DNA from: Candidatus Woesearchaeota archaeon
GTDB lineage: Archaea > Nanobdellota > Nanobdellia > SCGC-AAA011-G17 > ARS1403
Reading direction: 5' to 3'
DNA length: 64,000 nucleotides
Assembly (NCBI GenBank): GCA_016188065.1
Contig: JACPIN010000005.1
Location: 13,646-77,645, forward strand
Below the pieces are notes generated by a model, which worked only from the letters and a program-made list of their open reading frames with translations, had not been told where the DNA came from and searched no databases. A program made the position numbers and the translations under genes. Position 1 is the first letter of the stretch, and every line of letters begins with the position of its first letter. This document shows, piece after piece, positions 16,802-40,248 of this stretch.

Positions 16802-18016
16802 TTATTTCTTTAATAATCTTTTTCTTTTTATTTTTGCTAGTAGTTTTGCTTTTGTTCTGTAATATCCCAAGTCTTCTATAACCCCTTGCCTATAACCATG
16901 GTCTAATTTTCTTATTTCTTTCTGTATCTTTTTTATCTCATTCCCAGACAGCTCTTTAAAGTTGAAACATCTTTTTAATTTAAAGACAATCTCTGCTAAT
17001 TTCAATCTTAGTTTTCCTTCTTTTATCTTTTTAATTGATTTTTTTTCGATTAATATTAATACAGCCAGGATAACTGCGATAATTAGCTTGAGGTATTTAT
17101 TTGAAAAGATATTAGATTCTGCTATTTCTATTTCCTTTTCAAATGATGTTGTTTTATCTTTATACTTAACAAGCATAACAACTTTATAACTTCCTGCTGG
17201 CAATTCACTTGTTTTAAAAGGCAATTTGAGAGTATTTGAAACAATAAACCTGCCTTCATTTTTTATGACTACCTCACTATTCCTGATTAATAAATTTGTA
17301 ATTGATACGGATTTTTCCTCGTCTGTGTTTGAAAATATATAAAAGTTAAGATCTGCTTTGCCAGACAAACTTTTTTCCTCCATGTAAATATTGAAAGAAA
17401 TCATTTCATCAACTTGTGTTCCTACTTTTAGAATTTCAATTGTCTGAGACGCTGTTGCTGAGTAGTCCAGGTAATGCACTTTAATATTTAACTTGTATAA
17501 TCCCTGTATCGATGATGGAATCCATAACCTAGAATTCAAAACCTTATCTTCATTTCTTGCTATAAAGATTGTTTCTTCTCCTGTTGAAAAGGCCTTTCCA
17601 GTCTTAAAATCTTCTAAAGAGTAACTTATGATTACATCATCGGAAATTTGGCTCATTTCTTTAATCAGATAAGAAAAATCAAGAAACTCTCCTGCGATCA
17701 TTGGAGAGTCTGCGTGGATTAATTTAATATCAAAAAGTCTTAAGCAATCTCCATCACGACAGATCAAACCAGGGGAGCAATCATTATTGGATAAACATCC
17801 TGAAAAGCTTTTTCCGCCACTACCTCCGCCGCCACTTGTAGCCGTAGTTGTTGTCGATGTTTGCACTGCTTCTTCTCCCACTCCATAACTTCCTTTTCCA
17901 TAATCCCCCTCTCCATAATTTGCTGCTTGCACTAATTGTAAAGAAATAAAAAATAACACAATTAAACAAAGAAAAATATTTCTTCTATAATTTTTTCTTT
18001 TATCAATATGCGGCAT
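16802..18016 (-). CDS. Secreted cell-surface protein with C-terminal TM anchor and basic cytoplasmic tail
   Basis: 404 aa; signal peptide, Gly/Thr/Cys-rich linker (TSTTTTATSGGGGSGG, CLSNNDCSPGLICRDGDC), beta-rich body, C-terminal TM (LKLIIAVILAVLILI) then KRKRLLKK. Confidence 0.45.
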   Translation of the reverse strand: MPHIDKRKNYRRNIFLCLIVLFFISLQLVQAANYGEGDYGKGSYGVGEEAVQTSTTTTATSGGGGSGGKSFSGCLSNNDCSPGLICRDGDCLRLFDIKLIHADSPMIAGEFLDFSYLIKEMSQISDDVIISYSLEDFKTGKAFSTGEETIFIARNEDKVLNSRLWIPSSIQGLYKLNIKVHYLDYSATASQTIEILKVGTQVDEMISFNIYMEEKSLSGKADLNFYIFSNTDEEKSVSITNLLIRNSEVVIKNEGRFIVSNTLKLPFKTSELPAGSYKVVMLVKYKDKTTSFEKEIEIAESNIFSNKYLKLIIAVILAVLILIEKKSIKKIKEGKLRLKLAEIVFKLKRCFNFKELSGNEIKKIQKEIRKLDHGYRQGVIEDLGYYRTKAKLLAKIKRKRLLKK

Positions 18017-19760
18017 TTTCTAGAATTTCTATCCTGTTATTTAACTCTTCTATTTGTTTTTGCTGATCTTGGATAGCTTTTGTTAGTAACGCTGTCAGTC
18101 TCGAGTATTCTACATTTAAAGGCTCACCATTTTCATAAAGAACAAATAAACTAGAAACATTTGCCACTTCCTCTGCAATAAATCCGGCTTGTCTCGGAGC
18201 ATTAGGCAGGTAACTTTCTTTATAATCAAACTCAACAGGATGTAATTCCATTACTTTACCTATCCCTAACTCTAATGATGAGATATTTTCTTTCACTTTT
18301 AAAGTAGACAAAGTGCAATCGGTAGCAGAGCTGGATTCTATAATTGTGTTATTTGATGTGATACAAACAGCCGTCCCTGAATTTTCTGCATTTAATCCTT
18401 CAAATATAACCTGTTTAGAAATATTCATGCTTCCACCAATGTTTAAAGTGTTTGACGGAGAAGTTGTACCTATACCCACGTTTCCATTTTGATCAATTTT
18501 AACCCTGTCAGAGCCTGCTGTAACAAAGCTTATTGCTCCATTTTCATTGTTGACAAAATAAAAACCACCATCAGTAGATCCAAAATTTGTCAGCTGTCCA
18601 CCTATGTTTGAAACGAAACTGGAACTTTTAACTACGCTTCCGGCTGATGCTGTGGTAGAGATATTCCCATTTACTTCAAGCTTATCTCCCGGGGTTGATG
18701 TACCGATGCCGACATTACCTCCTGATTTCATCAACAATAAATCGCTTAAACCGCTTGCTACATTTTTAACTTCAACAGCGGAATACCAGCTAGATCCATT
18801 ATAATAATAAAAACCAACACTTTCCCCTGCTGCTCCTCCCCCTTCTGATAATATTGAAAAGTTGCTTCCTGTAGGTATGATAAATACGCCTGCTGGAAGT
18901 TCTCCGGTTGCTGCCCCATTAGGTCTCACTGAAAGAACATAAGTGTCATTAATTGAGAGAGTTTCATCTGGACTATTTGTTCCGATTCCAACTTTGTCTG
19001 CACCTTTCAAAGTTAAAATGTCTATTGGAGTTCCATCGGTTTTTAGCCTGAAGAATATATCTCCGGCATCATTGTCCCATTTATTGTCAAAAAATGTATC
19101 TCCTCCATCGTTATCATAAAGTATTTGGAAACCTGCTCCATCTGCAGTATCTCTAAAATAGAGTCTGGGGTCTACTGTAGTGGAAGTCCCTGGATTAATT
19201 ACAACTGATGGATCTGTTTCACTTCCGACATTTAGAGTTCCATTTGTATTTGTAGTTCCCACAAGTACTTTTCCCCCCATCAACGCTATGTTGGATGTTG
19301 ATCCGGGATAAATAAAATCTGTTAAGAGAGAATCTGAAATGGATAAATTTCCTGCTACAAAGACATCATTGCTTACGGATAAATTATTAATTAGGATTGA
19401 AGGTAAGGTGTTAGCATAAAGATAATCTGAGATTAAAGAATCTACGATTGTTAAATTGGCCTGAGAGGTTATGTTATCTGTTACTGATAAATTTGCAAGA
19501 AGGAATTCGGAAGTTGCTAAAATATCATCTCCTGAGATTGTTGCATCTAAAATCTGAGTTGTATTGACAATACTTTGACGAAGGTTTCCTCCATCATCAA
19601 TGCTTACATTGAGATAATTGTTTAAAATTGTCCCCCATCCATCATCATCGCTGTTTACCGTTGGAAGCCTTTCTGCATCGACATTTGTTAGATGAATTGT
19701 AAATAGCAGCATCATAAAGAGGATTCTTCTTAACATTGTACAAGATTTATTGTACATCAA
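18003..19760 (-). CDS. Secreted tail-fibre-like protein with C-terminal peptidase-S74 intramolecular chaperone (auto-processing) domain
   Basis: 585 aa; signal peptide; repeated VGIGT(N/S/T)SP and SDSLLTDFIY beta-helix-like repeats; C-terminus HPVEFDYKES...RQAGFIAEEVANVSSLFV...coiled coil (QDQQKQIEELNNRIEILEN) matches the S74 self-cleaving chaperone domain of phage tail spikes and endosialidases. Confidence 0.6.
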   Translation of the reverse strand: MMYNKSCTMLRRILFMMLLFTIHLTNVDAERLPTVNSDDDGWGTILNNYLNVSIDDGGNLRQSIVNTTQILDATISGDDILATSEFLLANLSVTDNITSQANLTIVDSLISDYLYANTLPSILINNLSVSNDVFVAGNLSISDSLLTDFIYPGSTSNIALMGGKVLVGTTNTNGTLNVGSETDPSVVINPGTSTTVDPRLYFRDTADGAGFQILYDNDGGDTFFDNKWDNDAGDIFFRLKTDGTPIDILTLKGADKVGIGTNSPDETLSINDTYVLSVRPNGAATGELPAGVFIIPTGSNFSILSEGGGAAGESVGFYYYNGSSWYSAVEVKNVASGLSDLLLMKSGGNVGIGTSTPGDKLEVNGNISTTASAGSVVKSSSFVSNIGGQLTNFGSTDGGFYFVNNENGAISFVTAGSDRVKIDQNGNVGIGTTSPSNTLNIGGSMNISKQVIFEGLNAENSGTAVCITSNNTIIESSSATDCTLSTLKVKENISSLELGIGKVMELHPVEFDYKESYLPNAPRQAGFIAEEVANVSSLFVLYENGEPLNVEYSRLTALLTKAIQDQQKQIEELNNRIEILENAAY

Positions 19761-19853: not shown

Positions 19854-21002
19854 CTATTTCAGATATTTTTCAATCCTTTCCAGAGCTTTTTTTATCAGAA
19901 ATAATTTTGTTGCATATGAAAATCTAATATAACCTTCTCCATATTCCCCGAATTCTGTCCCTGGAACGACTGCAACTTTTGCTTTTTTTAAAAGATCTTG
20001 AGAGAATTTATAGCTGGATTTCTTTGTTACATACTTTATATTTGAGAATGCATAAAATGCGCCTTTTGGCTCTTTTGTAATTAGATTTATTTCATTCAAT
20101 CTTTTTACAAGATATTTTCTTCTTCTGTTGTATGCTCTGACCATCCTGTTTATATACCGATTTGGCAAGGATAAGGCCTTGATTGCCATTAGCTGAGATA
20201 TGTGGGTAGGAGATATTGTCAGGAAATGCGAAGATTCTATTATTGATTCTGATAAATTCTTGGGGGATACTACATAGCCTACTCTAAAACCACACATAGC
20301 ATAACTTTTTGAAAACGTGTAAAGAGAGATGACATATTCTTTCATTCCGTTTAGTGATGCTATGGATACATGCTTTTCACCATCGTAAATTAATCTTTCA
20401 TAAGCTTCGTCTGAAAGTATGTAAAGATTTTTTTCTCTTGCAATGCCCGCAATTTCTTCAAGTAATTTTCTTGAATAGATCTGTCCTGTTGGATTGGAGG
20501 GGGAGTTGACTATAATCGCTTTTGTTTTTTTGTTTACTAGCTTTTTTATTTGATCTGGATCTGGCTGAAAATTATTTTCTTCAGAAAGCTTGTATGAAAT
20601 TGGTTTTCCATCGCTTAGTTCAATTGCTGGGAGATAAGCTAAATATCCTGGATTTGGAATCAATACTTGGTCTTTTGGATCTGTTGTTGTTAACAATGAT
20701 GCGAAAATAGCTTCTTGGCTTCCTGTTGTTACAATTACATTTTCAGGAATTGCATTTATCTTATTCTCTTTCTTTAATTTTTTACAGATTGCTTCTCTCA
20801 ATTCCTTTAAGCCTTGAGTCGGAGTGTAATGGGTGGATTTATGGATTATACTTGCTCCGTATCTTAACAAAGGCCGAGGCGTTGTGAAGTCTGGCTCCCC
20901 AGCTGAGAGTGAAATGATGCTTTTAGATTCGTACATTATCCTCAATAGTTCAGGAAGTGTAAAATTAGGCAGATGTTTTTCGCGTTCAGAAATCCCTCTC
21001 AT
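19854..21002 (-). CDS. Class I/II PLP aminotransferase (aspartate aminotransferase family)
   Basis: 382 aa; YTFSKSYAMCGFRVGY (the SxSKxxxxxGxRxG Lys motif); NPSNPTG. Confidence 0.85.
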   Translation of the reverse strand: MRGISEREKHLPNFTLPELLRIMYESKSIISLSAGEPDFTTPRPLLRYGASIIHKSTHYTPTQGLKELREAICKKLKKENKINAIPENVIVTTGSQEAIFASLLTTTDPKDQVLIPNPGYLAYLPAIELSDGKPISYKLSEENNFQPDPDQIKKLVNKKTKAIIVNSPSNPTGQIYSRKLLEEIAGIAREKNLYILSDEAYERLIYDGEKHVSIASLNGMKEYVISLYTFSKSYAMCGFRVGYVVSPKNLSESIIESSHFLTISPTHISQLMAIKALSLPNRYINRMVRAYNRRRKYLVKRLNEINLITKEPKGAFYAFSNIKYVTKKSSYKFSQDLLKKAKVAVVPGTEFGEYGEGYIRFSYATKLFLIKKALERIEKYLK

Positions 21003-21014
21003 AATTCTTTTAAA

Positions 21015-22139
21015 TTAATCTTGATTTATATATCTTTTTACGGTTTTTATAACATCCATATTAAACCGGGTTTGATATTTCGATAAAATTCTTTCCGAGA
21101 TTTCTTGAATTCCGATACCATTCTTTAACATAACTTTAATTTCTTCTCTAATTTTTTGTTTTGTTTCTTTATCTGTTTTCTGGAAAGTTTTAGATTTTAC
21201 AAAAGATTCCAGCAGTTTATATCTATAAGAGTTGACATATGGATTGAATATTGGGATTTCAAAAATGTCTTCTATTTTCTTAGTATTTCTAATCCAGACA
21301 ATATTCACCATTTTCCCCATCTTAGGAATCTTCCTTAATTTAATCCCTTTTGAGGTTCCAATTAACTCTATCAATATTTCTCTAATTAGTCCTGAATTAG
21401 GGTATGAAAATATCCTTAGATATCTACCTGGAAGATGTATTTTTGATCCGTCGCTATCACAAACACCTTGTATAAATCCGATCTTAAGCCATTTGGGTGA
21501 CTTCTTCATCCATTTTAGATTAACTTGATCATAAGTTGTAAGATCTTTTTCTTTTAATCCTAATATCTTTTCAAAAATGTAATCTGCCAAAAGAGAGTTT
21601 TTTGATCTCCAAAAGTACTCTAATCTATCCTTCTTTATTCGGTCTCTTCTACGAATCATTCTTATACCAAGAAGATTTGTTGTAAGTGAAAAGAAATCTC
21701 CGAATCTTTCATTACAGTCATGTTTTTTTGATAGTCCAAGACTTATTGTTCTAGACGATGTATGTAATTTGTCTTTACTACTATCTCCAATTAATACTCC
21801 AATAAAATAACCAAATAGATAGTCTTTATTCTTTTTTGAAAAATCATTAGGAAGATTAAATTTTTTCAGAAAGATACTAGTTTCTTTTGTTGGTTCTAAC
21901 TTACTAATAACTCTCTTAATATTTTTGAAATTGGTTATTTTCTTAGGTACTTGTATGAATCTTCCTATTGGAACTCCTCCACTTCCAAGTTTTAGGTTTA
22001 TCCATAAGAACCCTTTTTCAGGTTTTCCAATCTTTTTTAATGATTCGCCCCATTTTTTTGGGAGATTTCTGTTTCTATTGAAAAACCTTCTAGGTAGGTA
22101 AAAATATTTCATATCTCCATTAATATAGATATTTTTCAT
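21015..22139 (-). CDS. Free-standing double-motif LAGLIDADG-like homing endonuclease homolog with basic C-terminal extension
   Basis: 374 aa, very basic; two motifs about 120 aa apart, YLFGYFIGVLIGDSS (PI-SceI/I-DmoI type LLGLxIGDG) and WLKIGFIQGVCDSDGS; not embedded in an intein host or intron. Confidence 0.45.
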   Translation of the reverse strand: MKNIYINGDMKYFYLPRRFFNRNRNLPKKWGESLKKIGKPEKGFLWINLKLGSGGVPIGRFIQVPKKITNFKNIKRVISKLEPTKETSIFLKKFNLPNDFSKKNKDYLFGYFIGVLIGDSSKDKLHTSSRTISLGLSKKHDCNERFGDFFSLTTNLLGIRMIRRRDRIKKDRLEYFWRSKNSLLADYIFEKILGLKEKDLTTYDQVNLKWMKKSPKWLKIGFIQGVCDSDGSKIHLPGRYLRIFSYPNSGLIREILIELIGTSKGIKLRKIPKMGKMVNIVWIRNTKKIEDIFEIPIFNPYVNSYRYKLLESFVKSKTFQKTDKETKQKIREEIKVMLKNGIGIQEISERILSKYQTRFNMDVIKTVKRYINQD

Positions 22140-22288
22140 AATAAAACAAGAATATATTCATTTTTAAATGGTGTGAGGGTGTATGGCACATGTCATGTGA
22201 ATTTTAGAAATGAGATATTTTAGTTGTTGTTGAAACTTATGATTATATCTAGAGATAAACTACTTAGATTTTTTAGCAAAACTTTGCA

Positions 22289-22738
22289 TTATCTCTTTAT
22301 GCCTTGCATTCCTCCACATAGGTACTCGTGAAGAGTCATTCCAGTTAATTTCATACTTGGAAGTTGTATTAATAGTATATTTACTAAGAATAAATCAAAT
22401 GGGAAGAATATCCAAAATAATAGGGTACTAAAACTTGCGGTATAAAGAACTGCATGAATAACCTGTTGTTTTATTTTATATTTCTTCTTCCAATATGTTT
22501 TTGTTATCATCATTCCAAAAGTGCGGTTTTTATTAAAGAAAACAAAAATTAGTTTATATAATAGGAATAATGAAATGAAGATTAGTTTTTTAATTAAAGA
22601 ATTATTTACAATTAAGAAAAAAGGAAGGAATGCTATTGAGACAACAGCAACATTAATAACTGAATTAATTAGCTTTTCTATAGAAGATACTTGTCGCATA
22701 TACTTTACAGAATTATCTAATTTATATATGCTTCGCAA
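22289..22738 (-). CDS. Small membrane protein (hypothetical)
   Basis: 149 aa, 4 hydrophobic segments. Confidence 0.3.
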   Translation of the reverse strand: MRSIYKLDNSVKYMRQVSSIEKLINSVINVAVVSIAFLPFFLIVNNSLIKKLIFISLFLLYKLIFVFFNKNRTFGMMITKTYWKKKYKIKQQVIHAVLYTASFSTLLFWIFFPFDLFLVNILLIQLPSMKLTGMTLHEYLCGGMQGIKR

Positions 22739-23315
22739 AATTTTCTATAACTTCTTTATTAAAAACTTCAGGATGAAACAACACCCCGTAATGGTTATTT
22801 ATTTTAATTGCCTGTATTGATTTTGAAGACTCAGCTAATAGGTCAAATCCTCCCGGCAAAGTAACTGAAAATTGATGCAGTGAATAAACTTTTGTTATGT
22901 CTTTGATTAATTTATTTTCTTTTAAAATTTTAATTTCTGTTTGACCAATTTCTTTTGCCTTTTTTAATCTTGATCCATTTGCCAAAGCTAAGATCTGCAT
23001 GCCTGCACATATTCCTAAAATTGGTTTTTTGTAATCTTTAATCCAAGAAAATTTTTCTAAATCTTTTAGATATTCATCATCTTTTAGAGATGTTCCTGCA
23101 ATTATTATTTTTTCAGCTGAATCTAAGTCTTTTTGCTTTAAATCTTTATAATGAATTACTTTAGATTTTTTTAATAAATCCGTGATTGGTTTTATAAATT
23201 CTAAATCATGCAGCCTGTCTTTGCTAACATTAATTATTAGAATCATCTTTGAATAGCGGGCAGTAAACAATTTCTGTTTCTGCTTCACCTCCCTCGAATG
23301 CCGGATTAAATCCAT
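22722..23315 (-). CDS. Class I glutamine amidotransferase (GMP synthase subunit A-like)
   Basis: 197 aa; GICAGMQIL catalytic Cys motif and C-terminal LFHPE; the true start is probably an internal Met that shortens the overlap. Confidence 0.65.
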   Translation of the reverse strand: MDLIRHSREVKQKQKLFTARYSKMILIINVSKDRLHDLEFIKPITDLLKKSKVIHYKDLKQKDLDSAEKIIIAGTSLKDDEYLKDLEKFSWIKDYKKPILGICAGMQILALANGSRLKKAKEIGQTEIKILKENKLIKDITKVYSLHQFSVTLPGGFDLLAESSKSIQAIKINNHYGVLFHPEVFNKEVIENFAKHI

Positions 23316-40128: not shown

Positions 40129-40248
40129 GCCGAGATCGCATAATCTGGTATTGCGCAGGTCTTGAATGAAACTTTTAGAAAAAGCTTCACCAAAAATAAG
40201 ATAACCTGTTCCCGAGAGGGTATCTGGGTTCAAATCCCAGTCTCGGCG
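40129..40248 (+). tRNA. tRNA-Ser(UGA), class II, with a 36-nt canonical (37/38) intron
   Basis: Acceptor GCCGAGA/TCTCGGC; 3-bp D stem with 11-nt loop; anticodon arm CAGGT-CTTGAA[intron 40167-40202]A-ACCTG; variable arm TCCCGAGAGGGTA; T arm TCTGG-GTTCAAAT-CCCAG. Confidence 0.75.

Follow-up and report, generated by a model that had tools for sequence, protein, structure and literature searches.

A free-standing LAGLIDADG protein with a C-terminal HTH-like module is a probable mobile endonuclease of a DPANN archaeon

The DNA analysed here, which we call the window, is a stretch of 64,000 nucleotides (64 kb) from a Candidatus Woesearchaeota archaeon. On its minus strand, an ORF with an ATG start (21015..22139) encodes a free-standing 374-aa LAGLIDADG and HTH protein (P0001), which NCBI records as the hypothetical protein HYV89_01740, Candidatus Woesearchaeota archaeon. 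The host is a tiny DPANN archaeon. The protein is highly basic, as a preliminary description made from the sequence had stated, with a pI of 10.15 and 80 K/R (55 K and 25 R) versus 36 D/E (18 of each). Residues 1 to 40 show no conservation and are of low confidence, and the N-terminal HTH of most relatives is missing or degenerate, given which the window copy could represent an attenuated version. The N-terminal beta/alpha domain (residues 41-104; 21828..22019) carries the family-conserved pattern W(L/I)xxN...G..G(P/R)(W/F)IxVPxKI. It is followed by the segment that holds both LAGLIDADG motifs (21252..21827). Motif 1, FGYFIGVLIGDSS (residues 109-121; 21777..21815), contains the catalytic-position aspartate D119 at 21783-21785 and is followed by a nearly invariant K122, while motif 2, IGFIQGVCDSDGS (residues 220-232; 21444..21482), contains D230 at 21450-21452. 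A C-terminal helical HTH-like module (residues 305-373; 21021..21227), kept in the close clade, completes the protein; all of these elements lie on the minus strand. By our reading of the sequence, a TATA-box-like element, TTTAAAAA (22161..22168, minus strand), is located 29 nt upstream of the ATG, and ATTTATAAA is found about as far upstream of the start in the homolog at locus L001. The element suggests that the window gene is served by an archaeal promoter of its own and that its leader is short or absent.

The ORF, with its own ATG, stop codon and promoter-like box, sits between two complete protein-coding genes. Downstream, after a 12-nt spacer, is a class I/II aminotransferase gene of the host (19854..21002, minus strand; Pfam E = 5e-73), which is uninterrupted, spans Pfam positions 2-361 of 361, and aligns without indels from its ATG with intron-less relatives. 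On the other side lie a hydrophobic ORF (22289..22699, minus strand) of 136 aa, or 149 aa if read from an upstream TTG, and then a host glutamine amidotransferase (GATase) gene (22722..23315, minus strand). The hydrophobic ORF has no family match and was not seen beside other family members. The neighbours named in the preliminary description, an aminotransferase gene and a membrane-protein gene, were thus confirmed on the aminotransferase side, and the membrane-protein side comes down to this hydrophobic ORF.

That description also took the gene to be free-standing, and in the window it is indeed outside any intein, rRNA intron or tRNA intron. An intein-borne endonuclease was rejected on the grounds of the ORF's own start and stop, the complete flanking genes, and the lack of any Hint or intein Pfam match in the window protein or in 151 family members. 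An intron-encoded ORF of the I-DmoI type was rejected as well, as the window has no rRNA and its sole tRNA is 18 kb away. This tRNA (40129-40248, plus strand; Rfam, 44.6 bits), which was overlooked by ARAGORN, contains an intron of approximately 36 nt, far too short to encode the window protein. The suggested link between the gene and tRNA-intron mobility is therefore not supported. Neither kae1, the gene next to which most of the family resides (see below), nor a paralog of the LAGLIDADG gene occurs within the 64-kb window.

The window protein is a genuine two-motif LAGLIDADG protein that has kept both aspartates and has an HTH-like C terminus. D119 and D230 are 111 residues apart, within the approximately 90 to 120 residues that separate the two LAGLIDADG helices of single-chain enzymes, and an acidic residue closes each helix. 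Together with G231, these aspartates are invariant among 18 close homologs and at least 90% conserved among 150 homologs, and the two aspartates form the sole invariant columns among 60 long homologs. When the family profile was compared with PI-SceI, both motifs fell on its two LAGLIDADG motifs (E = 8e-4), with D119 and D230 aligned to the GD and SD of the PI-SceI motifs. On these points, namely two motifs at single-chain spacing, retained catalytic acids and an HTH-like C-terminal extension, the preliminary description was borne out. Its proposal to decide the matter by a direct Pfam search did not work, as the protein alone matched none of the LAGLIDADG profiles (PF00961, PF03161, PF14528 and PF05204) and returned only noise (Methyltransf_PK, E = 0.09), and a family profile or a structure was required. 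In NCBIfam, the protein had just a weak match (E = 8e-4), which fell in the intein region of an RtcB-intein model, and 77 of the 151 family homologs match PF14528, with a best E value of 1.6e-13. A phmmer search of the PDB returned a spurious RecA match inflated by repeats, and a profile of three sequences found nothing of use there. A first AF2 model from three sequences was poor (pLDDT 57), though it already retrieved LAGLIDADG structures exclusively; it was superseded by a 91-sequence model that is confident through the whole core and shows a high-confidence LAGLIDADG fold. Identity to solved LAGLIDADG enzymes is just 9-17%, and the best sequence and structure matches are the intein-type enzymes PI-SceI, TliVMA and PI-PfuI.

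The protein belongs to an unannotated family that forms about 291 clusters when grouped at 50% identity and is spread over many archaeal phyla, with members in DPANN, Asgard, methanogen and thaumarchaeal lineages. A word-index search found two relatives, and the family as a whole required an exhaustive HMMER search; for the genome scan, alignment A4 was too diverse and A5 was used instead. Long Asgard relatives bear arrays of HTH motifs, and different clades of the family occupy different fixed sites. PHROGs gave no matches and viral contigs contained one weak relative (24% identity); judged from these searches, the family does not appear to be obviously virus-borne. No conserved partner genes were found besides the adjacent target-like gene.

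Comparison with related genomes, which had been proposed as a check on the locus, showed that the gene is missing in the closest relatives. Flanking synteny is kept in relatives whose aminotransferases are 92%, 86% and 79% identical to that of the window, and the LAGLIDADG gene is absent from them. Two of the related loci (L037 and L038) have a clean empty site, with the junction TTTGCCAAAGATATATAAACAATAAATTCTCAATATTATTCATGAGAGG in the L037 type, while L036 and L039 have other content there. In blastn alignments to L037 and L038, homology stops at 22721 and restarts at 21037, within the last codons of the ORF. These breakpoints, along with the junctions and the base composition, delimit a strain-specific insertion of approximately 1.68 kb (21038..22720) that contains the hydrophobic ORF and the LAGLIDADG gene, has a GC content of 27-28% compared with a window mean of about 34%, and is placed between the stop codon of the GATase gene and the promoter of the conserved aminotransferase gene. 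The ends carry a 10-nt direct repeat, ATATATAAAT, whose left copy (22720..22729, minus strand) forms the C terminus and stop codon of the GATase gene. The right copy (21024..21033, minus strand), within the last codons of the LAGLIDADG ORF, equals a TATA-like element that insert-free relatives have kept at 22-34 nt upstream of the ATG of the aminotransferase gene. Such a repeat is not the product of clean homing; an illegitimate insertion may have left it, or it may have been required so that neither the stop codon of the GATase gene nor the TATA box of the aminotransferase gene was lost. In a repeat search, the insert was not flanked by terminal inverted repeats like those of transposons.

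The sole close homolog, P0002, is 51% identical to the window protein and occupies the matching position, directly 5' of an aminotransferase that is just 42% identical to the window's; the aminotransferase is the conserved flank common to both loci. No homolog above 51% identity was found by the word-index search among 5.8 billion proteins. The aminotransferase-linked clade has two known members, whose junction sequences are not alike, and its site specificity is thus judged from n = 2. At L001, the aminotransferase alignment breaks down after about residue 150, for which an intron was considered and set aside, a frameshift in a contig of 2x coverage being simpler.

Beyond the window, members of the main clade lie immediately 5' of kae1, and the kae1 gene beside it is interrupted by a bulge-helix-bulge (BHB) mini-intron of 13-30 nt. 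This association of the family with an intron, by way of its main clade, had been missed in the preliminary description. Removal of the mini-intron brings back GIESTAHTFG in 84 of 84 loci, and with cuts placed after the second nucleotide of each bulge, every complete locus regains Ala-His-Thr and an uninterrupted Kae1 ORF. The two exons pair in a 13-bp helix (exon1:exon2), which is accompanied by a 4-bp helix (CYGC:GCRG), bulges of 3 nt and, in many cases, an inner helix. Pairing holds in 96.3% of cells versus 31-46% in slid controls, six pairs show compensatory changes, and the observed values were reached in 0 of 500 shuffles. The intron-less site reads GGCATCGAAAGTACTGCACATACTTTCGGTGTC, and the predicted spliced junction follows the pattern GAAAGTAC[ACT]GC[AT]C|ATACTTT. 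The interruption thus appears to have what is expected of an archaeal BHB intron, and its splicing is predicted.

All kae1-adjacent endonuclease loci have the mini-intron (21/21 from genomes and 18/18 from metagenomes, 39/39 in all), while 25 of the 43 informative intron-bearing kae1 loci have no endonuclease gene. The linkage is one-way: an intron accompanies every endonuclease gene at kae1, and many of the introns have no endonuclease gene next to them. The kae1 sites also include pairs of filled and empty alleles as well as decayed remnants of the endonuclease gene; decay products of family genes were seen at L066/L079, L096, L109 and L111. Several other accounts of the kae1 interruption were considered and rejected: an intein, because the parts are separated by stop codons and frame changes; programmed frameshifting or bypass, because all three frame relationships occur, the in-frame cases contain one or two stops, and the lengths range from 13 to 30 nt; a pseudogene, because conservation across phyla extends to exon 1 and to the complete ORF and is accompanied by compensatory changes; and a role of the endonuclease-like protein as a splicing cofactor, because of the 25 intron-bearing loci from which it is absent.

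Taken together, these results lead us to propose that the window gene probably encodes a free-standing, single-chain homing-type LAGLIDADG endonuclease with a C-terminal HTH that is mobile now or was so recently. Between the two options of the preliminary description, a domesticated DNA-binding regulator or an active mobile endonuclease, we favor the mobile one because the 1.68-kb insertion is missing from the closest relatives and the catalytic residues are invariant family-wide; the regulator is the less likely of the two. The protein would bind a long DNA site with its two beta-sheet saddles and the HTH and cut both strands with D119 and D230. Double-strand-break repair would then copy the gene, at present or in the recent past, into an empty GATase/aminotransferase junction, and the insertion would itself destroy the target in the carrier genome. 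The main clade would act alike at its own site 5' of kae1, where the probable target is additionally split by the mini-intron, putatively spliced by the host.

A broader scheme, which we consider possible but somewhat short of probable, is that of a pan-archaeal LAGLIDADG-HTH family whose main clade practises collaborative homing with the BHB mini-intron, the window copy having been retargeted. The main-clade endonuclease would cut the intron-less GIE(G/S)TAH|TFGVG coding site of the t6A-synthesis gene kae1, the endonuclease gene and the 13-30-nt intron would be co-converted into the broken kae1 allele, and the mRNA would then be repaired by the host tRNA-splicing endonuclease and ligase. The window lineage would have moved to a new site, 5' of the aminotransferase, and would need no intron, as the target is already split by the insertion of the gene itself.

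What else could the gene be? That the motifs arose by chance in a K/I-rich protein with no real domain would suit the AT-rich genome and the failure of the single sequence to match Pfam, but this reading, to which we assign a negligible probability, is refuted by the high-confidence fold (with even the poor first model retrieving LAGLIDADG structures exclusively), the family-level Pfam matches, and the profile match to PI-SceI at both motifs. A more serious contender, though in our judgment unlikely, is a domesticated regulator similar to WhiA, in which the LAGLIDADG core serves as a scaffold or DNA binder and, with the HTH, controls the downstream gene (the aminotransferase gene in the window, kae1 for the main clade). 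In both clades the ORF reaches as far as the TATA-like box or start codon of the downstream gene, or overlaps it, and the HTH arrays of the long Asgard relatives are like those of many regulators. Yet no positions of the family are better conserved than D119 and D230, whereas WhiA has lost both acidic residues, and none of the WhiA Pfam domains (WhiA_N, LAGLIDADG_WhiA and HTH_WhiA) matches the window protein or any of the 151 members. A regulator also fits poorly with the 25 of 43 intron-bearing kae1 loci without the gene, and with its being dispensable at the aminotransferase locus, which close relatives keep in an expression-ready form without it.

Two further readings accept the nuclease ancestry. 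The gene could be a fixed relic of a past invasion, its ORF intact but its product no longer cutting, which we regard as distinctly unlikely. Consistent with decay, the window copy lacks the N-terminal HTH region conserved in its relatives or has it in degenerate form, motif 1 (GVLIGDSS) shows unusual degeneracy, the single sequence falls under Pfam thresholds, and clear decay products are present elsewhere in the family. Against it stand the intact 374-aa ORF with all family-invariant residues, the confident core of the AF2 model, and the comparison of P0001 with P0002, since 51% identity with conserved motifs, next to just 42% for the flanking aminotransferases, argues for continued purifying selection. 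Alternatively, the host may have co-opted the nuclease for a cellular role, such as the one of yeast HO or one in defence or repair, so that it is no longer selfish. The retained catalytic residues, the free-standing gene with an extra DNA-binding domain, as in HO (PMC3384342), and the best matches to the intein-type lineage from which HO arose would all suit such a role. We nevertheless hold it to be quite improbable, given the patchy and strain-specific distribution, a single weak match in viral contigs, no defence-system context seen, and no conserved partners apart from the adjacent target-like gene. A homing-type endonuclease that is mobile now or was so recently thus remains the reading we prefer.

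What was recorded as a hypothetical protein is therefore probably a mobile endonuclease, and its gene marks a hotspot of strain variation in this genome. Its HTH-flanked architecture is unusual, and the family could supply new long-site nucleases for genome engineering. As to kae1, a universal and essential gene, it appears to hold an unreported coding-region BHB mini-intron, and in many genomes of DPANN archaea such introns cause it to be recorded wrongly as a frameshifted gene or as one truncated at the N terminus. We found no earlier report in the literature of a kae1 mini-intron or of such homing. Until now, cbf5 has been the only accepted case of a coding-region BHB intron (PMC7714728, PMC2738675); if the broader scheme is true, kae1 would be the second such archaeal protein-coding gene, and co-conversion would be the first mechanism for the spread of ORF-less archaeal mini-introns. 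The one-way linkage opens to direct test the long-standing question of how ORF-less introns of archaeal tRNA, rRNA or mRNA genes move.

With the intron-encoded I-DmoI and I-Tsp061I and the intein-borne PI-PfuI, TliVMA and PI-SceI, the window protein shares two acid-ended LAGLIDADG helices and a basic DNA-binding surface, and its gene shows the presence/absence polymorphism typical of homing elements. Unlike those single-chain enzymes, it is encoded outside any rRNA or tRNA intron or intein, and it adds an N-terminal beta/alpha domain and a C-terminal HTH, to which relatives add N-terminal HTHs or HTH arrays. Yeast HO is likewise a free-standing LAGLIDADG enzyme, related to the intein type, with a C-terminal DNA-binding domain; however, it has a zinc-finger domain as well as relict Hint (intein) blocks and a fixed host function, and neither Hint blocks nor a host function is evident for the window protein. 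WhiA/DUF199, a bacterial regulator of sporulation and cell division, likewise has an HTH C-terminal to its LAGLIDADG core. Among Gram-positive bacteria WhiA occurs universally and is passed on vertically, whereas the window gene is sporadic in archaea. Moreover, WhiA is without the acidic and basic catalytic residues, with Arg and Gly at the acidic positions, and does not cut DNA (PMC3384342), while the present family keeps both aspartates almost invariantly.

The kae1 element differs from the BHB intron of the crenarchaeal cbf5 pre-mRNA (Watanabe 2002; Yokobori 2009, PMC2738675) in the gene and in the lineages, which are DPANN, Methanobacteriota, Methanosarcinales and Baldrarchaeota, and it is linked to a gene of the homing-endonuclease type, whereas the authors of the cbf5 study remarked that their intron lacks one (PMC2738675). 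By analogy, the main-clade arrangement at kae1 resembles the collaborative homing of phages, as outlined for F-CphI and psbA in cyanophages (Zeng, Bonocora & Shub 2009; PMC6083498). In F-CphI/psbA and in T4 mobE/I-TevIII, as in the main clade, a free-standing endonuclease gene lies directly by a target gene that contains an ORF-less intron at a conserved site. In the main clade, each kae1 gene adjacent to an endonuclease gene contains the intron, which also persists alone. The window copy, however, has no partner intron, its aminotransferase gene being uninterrupted. In contrast to F-CphI/psbA, moreover, the endonuclease is of the LAGLIDADG rather than the Endo VII or HNH type, the intron is a minute, putatively protein-spliced BHB element rather than a self-splicing group I intron, and the hosts are cellular archaea rather than phages.

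The preliminary description read the 374-aa ORF at 21015-22139 (minus strand; pI 10.15) as a two-motif LAGLIDADG protein, and both motifs were found, at residues 109-121 and 220-232. NCBI lists the identical protein as "hypothetical protein HYV89_01740" of the source Candidatus Woesearchaeota (DPANN) MAG. Used alone, it gave negative or marginal results in direct profile searches, and a word-index search returned two homologs only. An exhaustive HMMER search with a three-sequence profile as query recovered 291 cluster representatives (E ≤ 1e-10 in 236 and E ≤ 1e-30 in 87). Of the 151 members retrieved, 77 matched Pfam LAGLIDADG_3 (best E = 1.6e-13); HTH domains, HTH_23, HTH_28, and Sigma70_r4 among them, were present in many of the 151. 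In a 91-sequence family profile, the motifs align with the two LAGLIDADG motifs of PI-SceI, and AlphaFold2 run on the 91-sequence alignment gave a model (pLDDT 91.8, pTM 0.90) whose C-terminal helices resemble the HTHs of TrpR, homeodomains, and mariner. The aspartates at the catalytic positions, D119 and D230, are both kept: they do not vary in the 18 closest relatives, are the sole invariant columns in 60 long relatives, and show conservation of 90% or more in 150. Three positions beyond D119, K122 hardly varies, and we infer that it is comparable to K120 after E117 in I-DmoI (PMC3384342). Taken together, the profile, model, and conservation evidence shows that the motifs are real rather than chance matches, and the protein is almost certainly a genuine member of the LAGLIDADG enzyme type that carries an HTH tail.

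Members of the close clade comprise, in order, an N-terminal HTH, a beta/alpha domain carrying a conserved "WLSIN...GPWIxVPxKI", LAGLIDADG halves 1 and 2, and a C-terminal HTH. The window protein has no recognisable N-terminal HTH, and its residues 1-40 are unconserved and of low confidence. Every named family member is annotated "hypothetical protein". Asgard members reach 1,543 aa owing to N-terminal arrays of HTH motifs, and no enzyme domain was found in these long proteins. Giant members occur in Asgard-type and other archaea (P0039 from Thorarchaeota, 1270 aa; P0049, 1493 aa; P0146, 1543 aa; P0082, 1346 aa); varied HTH motifs (HTH_23, Sigma70_r4, AraC, MerR, and others) lie ahead of their LAGLIDADG module, and both catalytic Asp residues remain invariant.

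As first described, the gene is independent, with a class I/II aminotransferase gene (19854-21002; Pfam E = 5e-73) on one side and, on the other, a short hydrophobic ORF without any family match. Close relatives of the aminotransferase are numerous (92%, 86%, and 79% identity), while no homolog of the LAGLIDADG protein exceeds 51% identity in a database of 5.8 billion proteins. The relatives' contigs share the order diphthamide synthase, GATase, a slot of varying content, aminotransferase, and M42 peptidase, and the LAGLIDADG gene is missing from this slot in the four close relatives compared (L036-L039). The slot is empty in L037 and L038 (23 nt from the GATase stop to the aminotransferase ATG), L039 has another gene upstream of the aminotransferase, and the 92%-identical relative has a Peptidase_U32 gene there (L036:6736-7944), so that the slot seems to be a recurrent hotspot of gene gain and loss. 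The blastn breakpoints against the empty site, window positions 22721 and 21037, delimit an insert of ~1.68 kb that therefore holds the hydrophobic ORF and the LAGLIDADG gene; homology to the empty site resumes within the final seven codons of the latter. The GC content of the insert is 27-28% (the window is AT-rich, at ~34% GC), and a repeat search found no terminal inverted repeats. The sequence ATATATAAAT stands at both junctions (22720-22729 and 21024-21033), its right copy coinciding with a TATA-like box 22-34 nt upstream of the aminotransferase ATG that is conserved in all relatives. Another TATA-like sequence, TTTAAAAA, lies 29 nt upstream of the LAGLIDADG ATG. A second strain-specific insertion, at 16802-19760 (minus strand) on the opposite side of the aminotransferase, encodes two proteins, one of 585 aa that carries a Peptidase_S74 domain (endosialidase/tail-fibre intramolecular chaperone) and one of 404 aa that is rich in Gly/Ser and either secreted or membrane-bound; L036, L037, and L039 lack both genes, and their M42 peptidase gene directly follows the aminotransferase.

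The sole close homolog, P0002 (51% identity, Hainich groundwater), is also encoded directly 5' of an aminotransferase gene, with overlap, and its aminotransferase shares only 42% identity with the one in the window. A gene missing from close kin yet found at the corresponding position in distant kin bears the mark of site-specific mobility and not of vertical inheritance. We consider the insertion very likely to be strain-specific and horizontally acquired, and of the two roles proposed in the preliminary description, a putative active or recently active homing endonuclease is somewhat more probable than a regulator.

No rRNA was found in the window by Rfam or ARAGORN, and its sole intron-bearing tRNA (40129-40248, plus strand) lies 18 kb from the ORF. 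This tRNA, a full-length Rfam match of 44.6 bits over 120 nt, was missed by ARAGORN and by Rfam at the gathering threshold; we read it as a type-II tRNA-Ser(UGA) with a ~36-nt intron at position 37/38.

Scanning one genome from each GTDB species with a sequence pattern yielded 30 loci, each from a different archaeal MAG (Woese-, Pace-, Aenigm-, Iain-, and Nanoarchaeota, Methanobacteriota, Methanosarcinales, Hadesarchaea, Nitrososphaerales, Nitrosopumilales, Baldrarchaeota, and Promethearchaeota). In 21 of the 30, the LAGLIDADG gene lies directly 5' of kae1, the KEOPS t6A transferase gene, on the same strand. All 21 have the Kae1 N-terminal exon "M-x(4-8)-CLGIESTA" at the extreme end of the LAGLIDADG ORF or just past it, then a 13-28-nt insertion with stop codons or a frame change, and then the Kae1 body "TFGVGI..." (for example, outside the window, L012:6974-7030 and L009:7020-7080). 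The insertion interrupts the His codon of GIESTA-H-TFG, and its flanks fold as a bulge-helix-bulge (BHB) with a 13-bp exon 1:exon 2 helix, a 4-bp helix (CYGC:GCRG), two 3-nt bulges, and often an inner helix. Excision in silico, with the cuts placed after nucleotide 2 of both bulges, brings GCN-C and AU-ACU together (Ala-His-Thr) and restores GIE(G/S)TAHTFG and an intact Kae1 ORF of 324-372 aa at all 21 loci. An independent metagenome scan for the interrupted site gave 72 loci, of which 63 were genuine (introns of 13-30 nt, ORF again restored) and nine were chance matches, about as expected; removal restores the ORF in 84/84 genuine loci.

Among 67 unique sequences, the Thr codon varies at its synonymous third position in step with the intron base paired to it (U:A 45, C:G 14, A:U 5, G:U 2, one mismatch). 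Paired cells made up 96.3% of the structure pair count versus 31-46% in slid controls. Compensatory changes occur in six pairs, and none of 500 shuffles scored as high. The search pattern itself had fixed seven pairs, the inner ones of the long helix, but not the 4-bp helix or the outer pairs. At A6 columns 6 and 41, the third base of an exon 1 Gly codon covaries with the first base of an exon 2 Val/Ile codon (C:G 48, U:A 12), so that selection on the RNA of the splice helix seems to affect which amino acid is used in Kae1. Judged from these sequences, the mini-intron is in all probability real. Our search of the literature found no report of it; papers of 2020 and 2025 still name cbf5 and one Haloferax 5'-UTR case as the known mRNA BHB introns. 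In many DPANN genomes, the intron probably makes kae1 appear truncated or frameshifted in the annotation.

A rough NJ tree groups all kae1-linked proteins in a single clade and sets the window protein apart with P0002 in a small clade of its own, whose two members are both linked to an aminotransferase; further clades lie in other contexts unrelated to these (carbamate kinase/OTCase, EF-1alpha, and radical SAM genes, for example). Since, moreover, the 64-kb window contains neither kae1 nor a paralog of the gene, and its aminotransferase has no intron, the window gene is best seen as a lineage of the LAGLIDADG-HTH family with a different insertion site.

Whenever the LAGLIDADG gene is upstream, kae1 has the intron (21/21 genome and 18/18 metagenome loci). 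The reverse does not hold: among 43 informative intron-bearing metagenome loci, 14 have the full gene, four weak or fragmentary remnants, and 25 none, which argues that splicing does not need the LAGLIDADG protein. Near-identical kae1 alleles occur with and without the gene (L081 versus L043, L110 versus L111, and L084 versus L053), homology restarting at the kae1 start codon, and ~94 nt from the 3' end of the gene survive in L111. Such a cycle of invasion, decay, and loss is expected of homing-endonuclease genes. Degenerate or truncated remnants upstream of intron-bearing kae1 (L066/L079, 944-1894/1955-2905; L096:2799-3200; L109:6272-6460; L111, ~2028-2120) are consistent with decay after fixation. 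At seven loci (L009, L011, L017, L022, L023, L027, and L035), the LAGLIDADG ORF lacks its own stop codon, its frame continuing across the start and exon 1 of kae1 and closing inside the mini-intron; a spliced polycistronic mRNA would therefore encode a LAGLIDADG-Kae1 fusion, an arrangement that could act as a splicing-dependent switch.

Without its intron, kae1 would present a near-palindrome at this site (GGCATCGAAAGTA...TACTTTCGGTGTC), which makes a plausible candidate target for the LAGLIDADG protein. By analogy, we tentatively suggest that the endonuclease gene and the kae1 intron may be linked by collaborative homing, in which a free-standing endonuclease gene accompanies an ORF-less intron in the adjacent target gene; the one-way dependence of gene on intron at kae1 matches that of F-CphI and psbA (PMC6083498).
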